A stretch of 8,638 nt of DNA from positions 1 to 8,638 of the IMG/VR virus record IMGVR_UViG_2675903606_000008. One strand, given 5' to 3'. The translations under genes were made by a program, and so were the position numbers. Below the pieces are notes generated by a model. That model did not search any database. It was not told where the DNA came from and was given only the letters and a program-made list of their open reading frames with translations. This document shows positions 3,278 through 6,894 of the stretch, piece by piece (within the stretch, counting starts at the first letter, position 1; the number at the start of each line of letters is the position of its first letter). The DNA comes from a virus. Its lineage: Duplodnaviria > Heunggongvirae > Uroviricota > Caudoviricetes.

Positions 3278-3332
3278 AGATTAGCCATGACTAACAATTT
3301 GGTCAAGTATTTTTGTTTGCCATGACTAACAT
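3278..3332 (-). promoter_or_regulatory. Putative dicB-operon promoter (minus strand -35 TTGACC, 17-nt spacer, -10 TAATCT) flanked by two DicA-operator-like 20-mers
   Basis: On the minus strand: -35 TTGACC (plus 3301..3306), 17-nt spacer, -10 TAATCT (plus 3278..3283). Operator-like 20-mers at 3278..3297 (overlapping spacer and -10) and 3313..3332 resemble the palindrome in the dicA-dicC intergenic region. Confidence 0.55.
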
Positions 3333-3366
3333 TTTGGGCAACCAAAAAGATAACGCATTGATTGCG

Positions 3367-3774
3367 TTATCTTTTGTTTGTTCGTTGACGGGCTTTTAAT
3401 AACTCTTCAAAGAGTTTGTTGAAATTTTTTACTCGGGCGCGCATCTCGGTGAGCTGAGCATCCTGTTCTGATTCAGGCAATGCATTAAAAAGCTCAAGGA
3501 GCTCATGTTCTTTGGGGGATAGAGCAACTGGCTCCTCAATAGGTGGTGATGGTTGCTTGTCTTCATCGCCAAATAGAATCCATGTTGGCGAGCACTGCAG
3601 TACTTTGCTGAGGGCAAAAAGATTCTTTCCTGTAGGTTCGCTATCATCCCGCTCCCATTGTGAAACCGATACGTGAGAAATTTTCAGGACTTTAGCAAGA
3701 GACCTTTGGGTGTATTTGAGGTTTTTTCGGCGATATCTAATGCGTTCGCCAATGGTTAAATTTTTTGTATCCAT
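3367..3774 (-). CDS. dicA: DicA, CI-like HTH (XRE-family) repressor of the dicB operon (135 aa)
   Basis: Track ORF 3367..3774 minus, MDTKNLTIGERIRYRRKNLKYTQRSLAKVLKISHVSVSQWERDDSEPTGKNLFALSKVLQCSPTWILFGDEDKQ...NFNKLFEELLKARQRTNKR. This is near-identical over its full length to E. coli DicA as I recall it. It is divergently arranged with dicC. Confidence 0.9.
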   Translation of the reverse strand: MDTKNLTIGERIRYRRKNLKYTQRSLAKVLKISHVSVSQWERDDSEPTGKNLFALSKVLQCSPTWILFGDEDKQPSPPIEEPVALSPKEHELLELFNALPESEQDAQLTEMRARVKNFNKLFEELLKARQRTNKR

Positions 3775-3796
3775 AGTTAGCTAATGCTAAATCTTA

Positions 3797-3843
3797 TTGA
3801 CTATGTTTTTGTTAACATCTATTTTGTTAGTCATGGCTAACAA
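3797..3843 (+). promoter_or_regulatory. Putative dicC promoter (-35 TTGACT, 17-nt spacer, -10 TATTTT) with overlapping palindromic operator
   Basis: TTGACT at 3797..3802, 17-nt spacer, TATTTT at 3820..3825. The 20-bp operator TTGTTAGTCATGGCTAACAA (3824..3843) has perfect 7-bp inverted arms and starts within the -10 hexamer. The dicA promoter should lie in the same 83-bp intergenic region but I could not place it convincingly. Confidence 0.55.
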
Positions 3844-3857
3844 TCAAGGTGCTTTAA

Positions 3858-4088
3858 ATGCTTAAAACTGACGCACTTTTGTATTTCGGTTCAAAAACAA
3901 AACTTGCACAAGCTGCTGGTATTCGTTTGGCTTCGCTTTATAGCTGGAAAGGGGAGCTAGTACCTGAAGGTCGCGCGATGCGCCTGCAAGAGGCATCCGG
4001 CGGGGAACTTCAGTACGACCCCAAAGTTTATGACGAATATCGTAAGGCAAAGCGGGCGGGGCGGTTGAACAATGAAAATCACCCCTGA
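3858..4088 (+). CDS. dicC: DicC, Cro-like small regulator (76 aa)
   Basis: Track ORF 3858..4088 plus, MLKTDALLYFGSKTKLAQAAGIRLASLYSWKGELVPEGRAMRLQEASGGELQYDPKVYDEYRKAKRAGRLNNENHP. This is near-identical to E. coli DicC as I recall it and is divergent from dicA. Confidence 0.9.
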   Translation: MLKTDALLYFGSKTKLAQAAGIRLASLYSWKGELVPEGRAMRLQEASGGELQYDPKVYDEYRKAKRAGRLNNENHP

Positions 4089-4623
4089 ACAGGTTTGTGA
4101 GGCTCTGGATGCCTGGGTGTGCCGACCAGGAATGACACAGGAACAGGCGACGATATTAATCACGGAAGCATTCTGGGCTCTGAAAGAACGCCCGAACATC
4201 GATGTTCAACGCATCACGTTTAATGATGGCGAGGTTGATCAACGGGCACTGGGCGTTAACCGGGTGAAGATATTCGAACGCTGGAAAGCTATCGACACCA
4301 GGGATAAGCGGAAAAAATTCACGGCGCTGATTCCGGCAATTATGGAGGCTATCCGAATTAGTGATTTCAGGTTGTATCGTGAGATCAGTGATGGAAAAAG
4401 CATTACGTACATGATCGCCGGATTAAACAAAGAATATGGCGATGTGGTGGAGTCCGGGCTGCTTTTTGCGGATCCATCTGTTGTGGAACGTGAGACTGAC
4501 GAGCTTATAGAAAAAGCTATTGCTTTCAAGCATGCGTATCGTCAGCAGTATCAATATTACTTTGCAGATAAACAAATATCTGCCAGGGGTTCGTATGAGT
4601 ATCGATGCACTACGATGGGCTAA
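4072..4623 (+). CDS. YdaT-family protein (CII-like regulator, formerly annotated as toxin YdaT), 183 aa
   Basis: Track ORF 4072..4623. Its N-terminal half (MKITPEQVCEALDAWVCRPG...KIFERWKAIDTRDKRKKFTALIPAIMEAI) resembles Rac-prophage YdaT (MKIKHEHIRMAMNAWAHPDG...KIFRWVEKD...LLPAIEKAM). It occupies the cII position between the Cro-like and replication genes. Start overlaps the dicC 3' end by 17 nt. Confidence 0.7.
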   Translation: MKITPEQVCEALDAWVCRPGMTQEQATILITEAFWALKERPNIDVQRITFNDGEVDQRALGVNRVKIFERWKAIDTRDKRKKFTALIPAIMEAIRISDFRLYREISDGKSITYMIAGLNKEYGDVVESGLLFADPSVVERETDELIEKAIAFKHAYRQQYQYYFADKQISARGSYEYRCTTMG

Positions 4624-5635
4624 AAAGGTGAAAACCGGCAGTTCATCCAGTAAGTCTGTATTGACCTGGCTTGCTGATATGTGCGGTGCCGATTTGTGTG
4701 CATACCCGTCTGTATCTGCACTGGCAGAAGTAACGGAACTGAACAAAAAGACTGTGCAGGACAGCTTACGACACCTGATGGAGATTGGGTTAATTGTTGA
4801 TACCGGTGAGAGAAAAGGCAGAACAAAGCAAATTGTGGTGTACCGACTTATCGGTGTAGAAGAAAGTGTTGCCGAGCCTGAATACACCCAAAAACGGGTG
4901 TCTTTAAAGGTGGGTAAAATTGGTGCTGTTAATAAAAACAGTACCGAAAACGGTTATGTTTCAGCACAAAAGAGCCCCAAAAACGGAACTCTTTGTTGCA
5001 TGGAAAATAACCAAAGACACCCAAATTTTCCATCAAAGACACCCAAAAACGGATCACGGAACCCAAAGGAACCCAAAGATCTAAACCCCACACATAACGC
5101 ACGCGAGAGTGCTCCGATCAGTGAGCAGGAAGTTTTGTCGTTACAGGCAGCCCCCCATGTATTCCTGGATGGCCTGAGCGAACCCATCGGAAAATTTCCG
5201 ATGACCGATAGCTGGTATCCGTCACGGGATTTTCGACGACGGGCTGCGTTGTGGGGGATGGCTTTGCCGGAGACAGAATTTACACCTGCTGAACTTACCG
5301 CATTCCGGGACTACTGGGCAGCGGAGGGGAAAGTGTTTACGCAGATTCAGTGGGAGCAGAAATTCGCCCGTCACGTAAATCACGTCAGGGCGCAGGTTAA
5401 ACCAGTCAGCAAGGGGGTAAACCATGCAGCAGCACCAGGTGGCACCGCATCACGGGCAGTTCAGGAAATTCGGGCAGCACGTGAGCAGTGGGAACGTGAA
5501 AACGGATTTATCAGCGACGGAAACGGCCTGGAAGCTGTGGGAGCTCATGGGGGAGGTTTATTCGAACCGCTGGACCCAGAAGAACGGGGCCGCACCTTCG
5601 AAGCTCTGGATTGCACAGATTGGCGCGATGACTGA
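4595..5635 (+). CDS. Phage replication initiation protein (O-like functional analogue) with N-terminal winged-helix/HTH domain
   Basis: Track ORF 4520..5635. I prefer the ATG at 4595 (MSIDALRWAKKVKTG..., AGGGG 6 nt upstream). The N-terminus is a typical HTH replication-protein domain (SVLTWLADMCGADLCAYPSVSALAEVTELNKKTVQDSLRHLMEIGLI). A low-complexity, Pro/Lys/Asn-rich middle region is encoded by direct DNA repeats. The gene lies immediately upstream of a lambda P-like gene. Confidence 0.7.
   Translation: MSIDALRWAKKVKTGSSSSKSVLTWLADMCGADLCAYPSVSALAEVTELNKKTVQDSLRHLMEIGLIVDTGERKGRTKQIVVYRLIGVEESVAEPEYTQKRVSLKVGKIGAVNKNSTENGYVSAQKSPKNGTLCCMENNQRHPNFPSKTPKNGSRNPKEPKDLNPTHNARESAPISEQEVLSLQAAPHVFLDGLSEPIGKFPMTDSWYPSRDFRRRAALWGMALPETEFTPAELTAFRDYWAAEGKVFTQIQWEQKFARHVNHVRAQVKPVSKGVNHAAAPGGTASRAVQEIRAAREQWERENGFISDGNGLEAVGAHGGGLFEPLDPEERGRTFEALDCTDWRDD
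5011..5078. repeat. Iteron-like direct repeats inside the initiator gene (candidate replication origin)
   Basis: CAAAGACACCCAAA occurs at 5012..5025 and 5034..5047. Tandem GGAACCCAAAG / GAACCCAAAG occurs at 5058..5068 and 5069..5078. The ACCCAAA core therefore appears four times within about 60 bp, with AAAACGG motifs at 4947, 4979 and 5046 in an AT-richer flank. Confidence 0.4.
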
Positions 5636-6089
5636 GCAGCAAATCCGGCAGGTCTGCCGCCAGTGCATGGACCGCTGCCGGGCGGGTGAAACATGGCCTC
5701 CGGACCTGGCTGAGTTTGTGGCGCTGATTTCGGAAAGCGGGGCCAATCCATTTGGCCTGACGGTGGATGCTGTGATGGAGGAGTATCGCCGCTGGCGTAA
5801 TGAGTCCTGGCGATATAACGGAAGCGACAAATATCCGTGGCCTCAGCCTGTGCTGTATCACATTTGCCTCGAGATGCGTTCAAAGGGGATTGAACGCCAG
5901 ATGACCGAAGGGGAATTAAAACGGCTTGCAGAACGGCAGCTGACGAAATGGGCAAAGCATGTTAGTAACGGCCTGAGCGTTCCGCCAGTACGGCGACAAC
6001 TGGCGGCACCAAAACGCCCGTTGGGACCAACGCCAATTGAGTTGCTGAAACAGGAGTATGAACGCCGGAAAGCGGCTGGTTTTGTCTGA
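5424..6089 (+). CDS. Replication protein P-like (DnaB helicase loader), 221 aa
   Basis: Track ORF 5424..6089. Residues 45-221 align by eye to lambda P, for example MTEQQIRQVCRQCM with ITTMEQVNAGMRVA, TWPPDLAEFVALI with PFLPSPGQFVAWC, and YPWPQPVLYHICLEMRS...ELKRLAERQLTKW with YPWKSNAHYWLVTNLYQ...ELRRKAADELVHM. A strong SD (AAGGGGG) lies 7 nt upstream of the ATG at 5424. Confidence 0.75.
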   Translation: MQQHQVAPHHGQFRKFGQHVSSGNVKTDLSATETAWKLWELMGEVYSNRWTQKNGAAPSKLWIAQIGAMTEQQIRQVCRQCMDRCRAGETWPPDLAEFVALISESGANPFGLTVDAVMEEYRRWRNESWRYNGSDKYPWPQPVLYHICLEMRSKGIERQMTEGELKRLAERQLTKWAKHVSNGLSVPPVRRQLAAPKRPLGPTPIELLKQEYERRKAAGFV

Positions 6090-6123
6090 TTTGAGAAGTA
6101 ATTTTTATCCGGAGGAAATTTTA

Positions 6124-6894
6124 ATGGGAACCGTATTGCATGCACTGAAAGCGATGGGTAAAGCCAATTCTGTTGAACTGGCGGCGCGGCTTGATATCAG
6201 CCGTGAAGAAGTTCTCAACGAACTGTGGGAACTCAAAAAAAATGGCGTTGTTGATAAAACGGGTCACACCTGGTTTCTGGCTGTCGAAGGTGAATCCGGG
6301 GTAACCGAAGGGCAGGCACTACAACCTGAAGCGCCGGATGTGGTAACCGAAGAGGTCGCTCCAAAAGTTAGCGCTGACATGATGATTGAGTTTATCGCTC
6401 AGGAGGGGGCTAAAACCTGTGAAGAAATAGCGGGTAAGTTCGGTGTCAGTACTCGCAAGGTTGCTTCCACGCTGGCGGTGGTAACCGCAACGGGGCGGCT
6501 GGCACGCGTTAATCAGAACGGTAGATTTCGTTACTGCATGCCGGGCGATAATTTACCAGCAGAGCCGAAAGCCGCGCTGGTAACGGAAAATGATGGTAAG
6601 GCCTTTCCTCAGCCAGCAGGTGCTGCGTTACCAGTCCGGGAAGCCGCAACACAGGAAGAAATTAAAACAGAAACTGTGGCGGACATTGTGCAGCCGTTGC
6701 CATCGTTTACCGAAACGCAAGCAGATGAGCTGATTTTTCCGTCCCTGCGCAGGGCAAACCTGGCGCTGCGCAGGGCGAAAAGTGATGTTCAGAAGTGGGA
6801 GCGAGTCTGCGCCGCGCTGCGGGAGCTGAACAAGCACCGGGATATTGTTCGACAGATTACTGATTCTTCCCGCCGTGTTGTATCGGAAAAGTGA
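6124..6894 (+). CDS. Prophage protein with two winged-helix/HTH-like segments (DUF1627-like, assignment from memory), 257 aa
   Basis: Track ORF 6058..6894. Preferred start is the ATG at 6124 (MGTVLHALKAMGK), with GGAGGA 7 nt upstream and after the P-like stop at 6089. Two segments resemble MarR-like winged helices: SVELAARLDISREEVLNELWELKKNGVV and CEEIAGKFGVSTRKVASTLAVVTATGRL. Confidence 0.6.
   Translation: MGTVLHALKAMGKANSVELAARLDISREEVLNELWELKKNGVVDKTGHTWFLAVEGESGVTEGQALQPEAPDVVTEEVAPKVSADMMIEFIAQEGAKTCEEIAGKFGVSTRKVASTLAVVTATGRLARVNQNGRFRYCMPGDNLPAEPKAALVTENDGKAFPQPAGAALPVREAATQEEIKTETVADIVQPLPSFTETQADELIFPSLRRANLALRRAKSDVQKWERVCAALRELNKHRDIVRQITDSSRRVVSEK

Follow-up and report, generated by a model that had tools for sequence, protein, structure and literature searches.

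The window, an 8,638-nucleotide stretch of the Caudoviricetes record IMGVR_UViG_2675903606_000008, is carried by a lambdoid, Rac/PPompW-like prophage of E. coli (O157) and encodes a 346-aa replication initiator (4595..5635, + strand; phrog_1032, HTH_36, PF17948). An array of direct repeats in the middle of this gene, at 4884-5078, is probably a replication origin of the lambda type, with the repeats as putative binding sites of the initiator. A preliminary description of the sequence had proposed such a lambda-like in-gene origin, and every comparative test run supported this reading, from which we infer origin function. The arrangement itself, an origin inside the initiator gene, is textbook knowledge for lambdoid phages (PMC7466680, PMC8022706). 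The new elements, as judged from sequence, are the sequence of the site and its near-universal presence in HTH_36 'O-like / primosomal protein' initiators.

The array consists of seven CC[CG]AAA cores on the coding strand at 4887-5077. Five of the seven are longer sites of 16-18 bp, (A)CACCCAAAAACGG-like, at 4884-5056, which share the coding-strand core CC(C/G)-A-tract-(C)GG and are referred to here as iterons 1 to 5. Iteron 1 (ACACCC-AAAAAC-GGGTGT, ACACCCAAAAACGGGTGT; 4884..4901, +) is a perfect 6+6 dyad whose arms continue imperfectly to 4880-4905; it lies in frame +1, is read TQKR and has GGGAGT as its right arm in other E. coli alleles. Iteron 2 (GTACCG-AAAA-CGGTTA; 4941..4956, +) has a shorter spacer and an ACCG/CGGT dyad. 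Its position reads CCGAAAATGG in most E. coli alleles, and phiV10 and Vibrio phage H20 have the variant CCGAAAACGG as their main unit. Iteron 3 (AGCCCC-AAAAAC-GGAACT; 4973..4990, +), in frame 0 and read SPKNGT, has AACAG in EDL933-type alleles. Iteron 4 (ACACCC-AAATTTT-CCATCA; 5017..5034, +) is in frame 2 and has a variant AAATTT centre, which was seen again in LZ35, Bcep176 and EPP-1. Iteron 5 (ACACCC-AAAAAC-GGATCA; 5039..5056, +), in frame 0 and read TPKNGS, is unchanged across six aligned E. coli alleles, that of the window and those of five other strains. Dyad symmetry is perfect in iteron 1 and partial in the other four, and the site-to-site spacings are irregular (57, 32, 44 and 22).

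The preliminary description had placed the repeats at 4940-5090. Repeats do lie there, but the array starts at 4884 and its best site, iteron 1, falls outside that interval. The 14-mer CAAAGACACCCAAA, said to occur at 5012-5025 and 5034-5047, was recovered as two exact copies 22 bp apart. The four ACCCAAA reported within about 60 bp were also found (5019-5077), and a fifth had been overlooked at 4886, giving + strand positions of 4886, 5019, 5041, 5061 and 5071. AAAACGG occurs at 4891, 4947, 4980 and 5046: the earlier positions 4947 and 5046 were correct, 4979 was off by one and the copy at 4891 had been missed. Four ACCCAAA cores had been taken as iterons, which stands for those at 5019 and 5041 but probably not for the tandem copies at 5058-5078.

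This clustering of repeats exceeds chance. ACCCAAA has six matches in the window against 1.75 expected, a number reached in 1 of 200 shuffles. Seven CC[CG]AAA in 200 bp occurred in none of 2000 first-order Markov simulations, in which the maximum was four. As in a lambda-type origin, at least four direct repeats lie within the gene, between the parts coding for the N- and C-domains. The rest of the window showed no repeat cluster and nothing origin-like.

The tandem repeat described earlier at 5058..5078 (+) was found as stated: it has the 10-bp unit GGAACCCAAA in 2.1 copies with a 100% match (TRF score 42). Its position is where relatives have two to three short GAACC-type repeats in an AT-rich tract, and comparable short repeats lie 3' of the last iteron in phiV10, Bcep176 and three further loci (L045, L032 and L021). 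The tandem is probably a different, slippage-prone element and not two further iterons. In E. coli 07_3636 (L129, 1671-1680) one GGAACCCAAA unit has been lost, and the resulting frameshift splits the initiator into a helix-turn-helix (HTH) gene and a DnaT-like pseudogene. The tandem forms a hotspot of slippage within an essential phage gene.

One check proposed with the preliminary description was whether the repeats are conserved as DNA more than as protein, and this was borne out by their reading frames and by codon choice. The seven cores occupy frames 1, 1, 0, 2, 0, 2 and 0, and the identical 14-mer is read QRHPN at 5012 and SKTPK at 5034; because the copies use all three frames, the repeat is in the DNA and not purely in the peptide. 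At in-frame P[KE]xG sites of the window and five phages, Pro was encoded by CCC in 19/19 cases, against 17/93 Pro codons elsewhere in the seven genes examined. The phages for this codon test, seven, were chosen solely by tblastn similarity of the N-domain. In 26 dereplicated viral clusters, copies in frames 0, 1 and 2 stood at 63:42:12, and spacings of 23, 24 and 25 bp were found 11, 17 and 9 times. Since all three spacings are common, the repeat period is not tied to codons. The repeats are therefore constrained as DNA, and they are co-inherited with the DNA-binding domain, both of which are features of a lambda-type origin.

The same sites also form a 24-bp-period array in apparently non-coding DNA of some viral contigs. 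Such orphan arrays (ATCCCAAAAACGGGTACATTCAAA, four to six copies) were seen at L101 6205-6355 and also in L039, L095, L108 and L116. They have no N-domain homolog nearby, and the neighbour in L101 is an AAA+ ATPase with a C-terminal HTH. Both kinds of array occur in contig IMGVR_UViG_2547132289_000010 (19.5 kb; L039 2275-2358, L115 6302-6410), where the in-gene array accompanies an initiator N-domain (E 5e-36) and the orphan array lies about 12 kb off in the same orientation. The second array could be a second origin or a titration or control site.

DNA-level conservation in homologous initiators, as the earlier reading implied, was found: arrays stand at the same place in relatives of low protein identity. 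The initiators of phages EPP-1 and GF-2 (Edwardsiella), phiV10 (Escherichia), LZ35 (Acinetobacter), H20 (Vibrio) and Bcep176 (Burkholderia) show 26-42% whole-protein identity and 33-58% over the N-domain (tblastn). In each of the six genes the coding strand has four to six copies of CC[CG]AAA(A/T)(A/T)nGG, the first of them 270-330 nt from the gene start. The same 11-mer is retained across genomes of 37-61% GC. The C-terminal parts of the six align poorly, and the DnaT-like part is retained in phiV10 only. Six in-gene copies were also found in an uncultured podovirus from enhanced biological phosphorus removal sludge and four copies of the variant GTACCGAAATTGGTAC in Ab105-2phi. Moraxella phage Mcat8 has a different repeat at the array position and an altered wing motif.

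The association of domain and repeat held when searched from either side. Starting from protein, N-domain peptide patterns with one genome per bacterial species yielded 80 loci, 77 of them evaluable, annotated as Gamma-, Beta- and Alphaproteobacteria plus one Halodesulfovibrio. Repeats were scored de novo as the most repeated 9-mer, with one mismatch allowed, in the 360 nt 3' of the N-domain. At least four copies were present in 70/77 protein-selected loci compared with 29/525 control windows, and 65 loci topped every control window of their own locus. An Acinetobacter prophage subgroup has GTCCC-AACAAC-GGGAC, with the same arms and the variant centre GTCCCAACAACGGGAC. A strict motif, CC[CG]AAA[AT][ATC], was dropped, as it had 0-1 copies in 40/78 loci and missed this subgroup. 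Starting from DNA, viral contigs with two CCCAAAAACGG within 6-36 nt (22 specified bases) gave at least 120 loci, which form 26 clusters at 70% identity. The motif pair was on the coding strand in 111 of the at least 120 loci, and in 110 of those 111 it lay in the same open reading frame (ORF) as an N-domain homolog, a median of 70 nt 3' of it. Nine DNA-selected loci were without an HTH_36-type N-domain, among them the contig L050 considered below.

The initiator is laid out as a winged-helix N-domain (aa 1-~90), a disordered linker (~90-195) and a DnaT-like C-domain (~197-270). It matches phrog_1032 'replication initiation protein' at 5e-90, and RefSeq annotates the same ORF in relatives. Against HTH_36 (PF13730) the window protein scores 23.8 bits for a cut-off of 25; 8/8 aligned relatives match (best 5e-14) and close homologs have precomputed PF13730 matches. 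On these profile matches, the N-domain appears to belong to the HTH_36/phrog_1032 initiators. Encoded at 4595..4870 (+), with the wing motif DTGERKGxT, it is the presumed reader of the iterons. An AlphaFold2 (AF2) model of residues 1-92 has a predicted local distance difference test score (pLDDT) of 84 and forms a winged helix with the layout H-H-H-H-hairpin. Foldseek matched it to proteins that bind DNA through a winged helix, namely Lrs14-like 2d1h (6e-4), the CodY DNA-binding domain, MarR/ZitR-DNA and plasmid Rep-DNA 5kbj, and the conserved columns D69, T70, G71 and G75 fall in the wing.

In the full-length AF2 model, residues 90-209 have a pLDDT below 50 (except 143-146 and 160) and no secondary structure. 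The repeats encode residues ~97-162 of this predicted disordered linker. As the preliminary description had said of a Pro/Lys/Asn-rich segment, it is of low complexity, being N/P/K/S-rich with 63% P/K/N/G/S/T/E/Q compared with 43% in the flanking domains. The C-domain (from ~5183) matches PF17948 DnaT with 60 bits and the PDB DnaT chain 6aep at 5e-19. Orthology to DnaT was rejected: the NCBIfam equivalog scored 91.9 bits against a cut-off of 201, and the C-terminal DNA-binding domain alone matches.

A mosaic joint follows directly on the array at 5075..5080 (no strand assigned). A megablast match starts at query 556, equal to window position 5075, which pairwise alignment confirmed. From 5075 in the 3' direction the window is ~90% identical to the Rac-SA53 ydaU-ydaV region (the oriJ region of Rac), over the DnaT-like C-domain and on into the downstream region, whereas the 5' side is unrelated. 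Rac-SA53 YdaU has a different N-domain, DUF1376, and none of the window's repeats. Because the joint lies right after the array, N-domain and array move together, apart from the C-domain and loader. N-domain and array would be expected to move in this way if they are specificity partners. The sequence 3' of ~5075 also matches a record labelled Actinobacillus phage vB_Apl-pPE4.

Comparison with lambda showed a shared plan with different parts. Like ori-lambda, the array consists of dyad-bearing direct repeats on the coding strand in mid initiator gene; the annotated lambda iterons, ATCCCTCAAAACGAGGGA-type dyads, occupy O gene positions 349-433 and the window's array positions 290-462. In both, each site has the form CCC...A-tract...GGG, the linker that the repeats encode joins the DNA-binding N-domain to a C-domain whose partner, presumed in the window, is a P-type loader, and cro and cII-like genes precede the gene in a rightward early operon. 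In the window the P-like loader is directly downstream of the initiator and the locus is inside such an operon, as a lambda-type origin would have it. Unlike lambda, the window has an HTH_36 N-domain in place of Phage_rep_O and a DnaT-like C-domain. The gap between CCC and GGG is 6 nt and not 9, and the irregular spacings given above compare with 20-24 in lambda. The lambda iterons are followed by an AT-rich tract, whereas the window has no 80%-AT tract right after its last site. Origins of the lambda type with six iterons are also known from the Shiga toxin (Stx) phages 933W and P27 (PMC7466680).

The uncultured viral contig L050 has a true Phage_rep_O/PF04492 gene (1.5e-31), unlike the window, whose N-domain gave no PF04492 match at E up to 0.01. 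Inside this gene, at 2700-2860, are five TTACCCAAAAACGGGTAA-type dyads (TTACCC-AAAAAC/AAATTC-GGGTAA) with 22-44-bp spacing, followed by an AT-rich tract. Their core CCCAAAAACGGG and ACCC/GGGT arms match iteron 1 of the window. L050 bridges the HTH_36-type and lambda-O-type initiator families. The window's own N-domain is linked to lambda O only indirectly, in that each of the two aligns to phrog_678 and phrog_345 in one shared part of the profile; in phrog_391 the window's N-domain is at the N-terminal end of the profile and the C-terminal half of lambda O at the other end.

The closest described protein architecture is that of DopC/DopE of Cellvibrionales and some Oceanospirillales, in which HTH_36 and a DnaT C-terminal motif are followed by a lambda-P-like gene (PMC5509034). 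DopC is a domesticated chromosomal gene, reported without iterons and not coincident with the replication origin (PMC5509034). The window's gene has the same architecture but, unlike DopC, is prophage-borne and has the array. That DopC reportedly has no iterons would agree with an array that phage replication needs and the protein does not. In Salmonella phages P22 and L (gene 18), type-specific short repeats lie inside the phage's own initiator gene and are taken as the origin (PMC8022706). The phage L repeats differ (TGTCCAACGGA), so that only the principle is shared. A closer link to phage L was dropped despite the likeness to the Acinetobacter variant, as an N-domain homolog was present in 0/11 viral loci with TGTCCAACGGA. 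An iteron plasmid origin of the RepA/pi type was also rejected, the sites being inside the gene with no DnaA box near the array. The literature searched held nothing specific on this motif or on iterons of phage initiators of the DnaT type. Origins are not a topic of the Eru classification paper, which treats Stx-phage replication regions, and the Rac oriJ papers have no sequence-level mapping.

By analogy with lambda O and ori-lambda, the initiator's N-domain would bind the sites after rightward transcription from a pR-like promoter. Iteron 1 at least is probably bound by a dimer, because it is a perfect dyad. The A-tracts, partly in helical phase, may help to wrap the DNA into an O-some-like complex, upon which a nearby tract of low stability, either 4899-4938 or the GAACC-repeat tract 3' of the last iteron, would open. 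The DnaT-like C-domain and the adjacent P-like protein would then recruit host DnaB. N-domain and sites would form one specificity module, exchanged apart from the module of C-domain and loader.

The preliminary description had placed an A-rich stretch beside the repeats. Its low GC (0.39-0.42) and strong positive AT skew hold across 4900-5100, but the tract itself is modest and no lambda-grade unwinding region. The most AT-rich and least stable 40-mer of the gene (4899..4938, +; 70% AT) lies between iterons 1 and 2, has a dG of about -48 (window mean -56, standard deviation 4.2) and is a weak candidate for the unwinding tract. In relatives, the 30 bp 3' of the last iteron are richer in AT by 0.10-0.14. 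There is no DnaA box by the array, the sole 9-mer within one mismatch being far off at 6249; this is neutral, and the lambda origin needs no DnaA box. No Rfam family was found at the array. Of the 14 GATC in the 8.6-kb window, three (5052, 5078 and 5116) lie within 65 bp of each other at the array's right end and may be relevant to Dam/SeqA control.

Several observations weigh against an origin at 4884-5078. The candidate unwinding tract, which falls within the array, is only 70% AT and is exceeded in instability elsewhere in the window, and the DNA just 3' of the last iteron is not AT-rich. Iteron 1 alone is a good dyad, and in the window's allele only. E. coli alleles are not uniform at iterons 2 and 3 (CCGAAAATGG, AACAG), and some copies may be degenerate. 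The A-tracts of iterons 4 and 5 and the tandem units fall within ~0.14 helical turn of each other (assuming 10.5 bp/turn), but those of iterons 1-3 are out of that phase, a weak point of the wrapping scheme. The in-frame copies encode PKNG, and an added role at the protein level is possible. An hhalign comparison with lambda O was weak (probability 5%, E 0.0075), too weak alone to claim homology, and placement in the lambda O family was rejected. The virulent Acinetobacter phage BS46, which has a distant homolog, shows no in-gene repeats. Lastly, the literature searched contained no binding or replication experiment on the HTH_36 initiator family. BS46 (94 kb; L137 1000-1216) does have GATAC(C/T)GTT / GATGTA(A/C)CTGTT-type repeats in AT-rich intergenic DNA just upstream, a plasmid-like layout.

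The main alternative is that the sites bind the initiator mainly for control (autoregulation, titration, handcuffing or incompatibility of prophages in the same cell), with opening and initiation elsewhere. The second, non-coding array ~12 kb from the initiator gene in some phages fits such a role, as do the window's want of a strong AT-rich tract beside the array and the presence of up to four module copies per E. coli genome. However, lambda and iteron plasmids use the same sites for both jobs, in relatives the array is indeed followed by short repeats in an AT-rich tract, and the window offers no second repeat cluster at which initiation could be placed. We therefore consider a mainly regulatory array unlikely. 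Somewhat less likely again is a vestigial origin, in a prophage copy that no longer replicates and whose array is decaying. O157 prophages are often defective, iterons 2 and 3 vary among alleles, the 07_3636 initiator is frameshifted and the gene of the neighbouring strain HSP425 is truncated, but the window has both ORFs, initiator and P-like, intact and coupled, its iteron 1 is a perfect dyad, and 908 E. coli genomes retain the module with 95-100% conservation. That the repeats are a slippage by-product or a PKNG peptide repeat with no role as DNA is very improbable and largely refuted: the 10-bp unit at 5058-5078 does slip and the in-frame copies do encode P-K-N-G in a linker predicted to be disordered, but the copies use three reading frames, CCC is chosen in 19/19 cases compared with 18% elsewhere, the 11-mer is kept at 37-61% GC and 26-42% protein identity, identical arrays lie in non-coding DNA, and DopC is reported without them (PMC5509034).

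An origin at 4884-5078 would be a widespread one. The repeat-bearing 5' half of the initiator gene (4595-5100) is 100% identical to O157:H7 strain TR01 and 98% identical to 'PPompW' prophages, and it is present at 95-100% identity in 908/5426 complete E. coli genomes. A likely origin is thereby located for a prophage module in ~900/5426 genomes, including O157:H7 and other Shiga-toxin strains. In Shiga-toxin strains, prophage replication amplifies phage genes after induction. The N-domain and iteron module occupies 994 places in 909 genomes, with a maximum of four copies per genome; in multi-copy genomes, co-resident prophages would have initiator and origin specificity in common. A winged-helix HTH_36 domain followed by CCC-A-tract-GGG repeats could also serve as a signature for finding origins among the 'O-like / primosomal protein' phage initiators, a large family that is widely annotated yet unstudied.

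More doubtful is a shared ancient origin 'code', in which a CCC-N6-GGG core would be common to the barely alignable HTH_36- and lambda-O-type initiators. The core occurs in gamma- and betaproteobacterial phages, in bacterial loci with an Alphaproteobacteria or Halodesulfovibrio annotation, and in the orphan non-coding arrays. If such a code were real, only the 2-3 bp flanks (ACACCC, GATCCC, CAGTCCC, TTACCC) would set lineage specificity, and co-resident prophages and array-only elements could cross-fire or parasitise each other's initiators.

The genes around the initiator follow the lambdoid order. A cI-like repressor gene (3367-3774, - strand) is divergent from a cro-like gene (3858-4088, +), and between them lies a pR-like promoter candidate, TTGACT-17-TATTTT (3797..3825, +; 9/12 matches), the sole match of a promoter-consensus scan within 3300-6200. 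If it acts as a promoter, as its sequence and position suggest, rightward transcription from it would pass through the origin. A cII/YdaT-like gene (4072-4623) precedes the initiator gene. The lambda-P-like helicase loader gene (5628..6089, +) matches PF06992 Phage_lambda_P at 4e-16 and phrog_109 'P-like helicase loader' at 1e-62. Its start overlaps the initiator stop codon, and both ORFs are intact and translationally coupled in the window. RefSeq annotates the ORF of relatives at matching coordinates as 'replication protein P'. An alternative long ORF (5424-6089) overlaps the initiator 3' end by 212 nt (5424-5635); the start at 5628 is preferred over 5424 on the strength of RefSeq and of the start/stop codon overlap. 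The profile phrog_15931 (482 positions) covers both the initiator and the P-like protein, and fused O-P forms may exist. Genes for DUF1627 and DUF977 proteins lie 3' of the loader.

At the other end of the window, the left 2.4 kb matches a recE-remnant/dicB region found in most E. coli genomes. It includes the DicF antisense small RNA (1798-1849, - strand; Rfam RF00039, 75 bits where the gathering score is 48) and, 3' of DicF on the same strand, an ORF for a dicB-like cell-division inhibitor (1435-1728).

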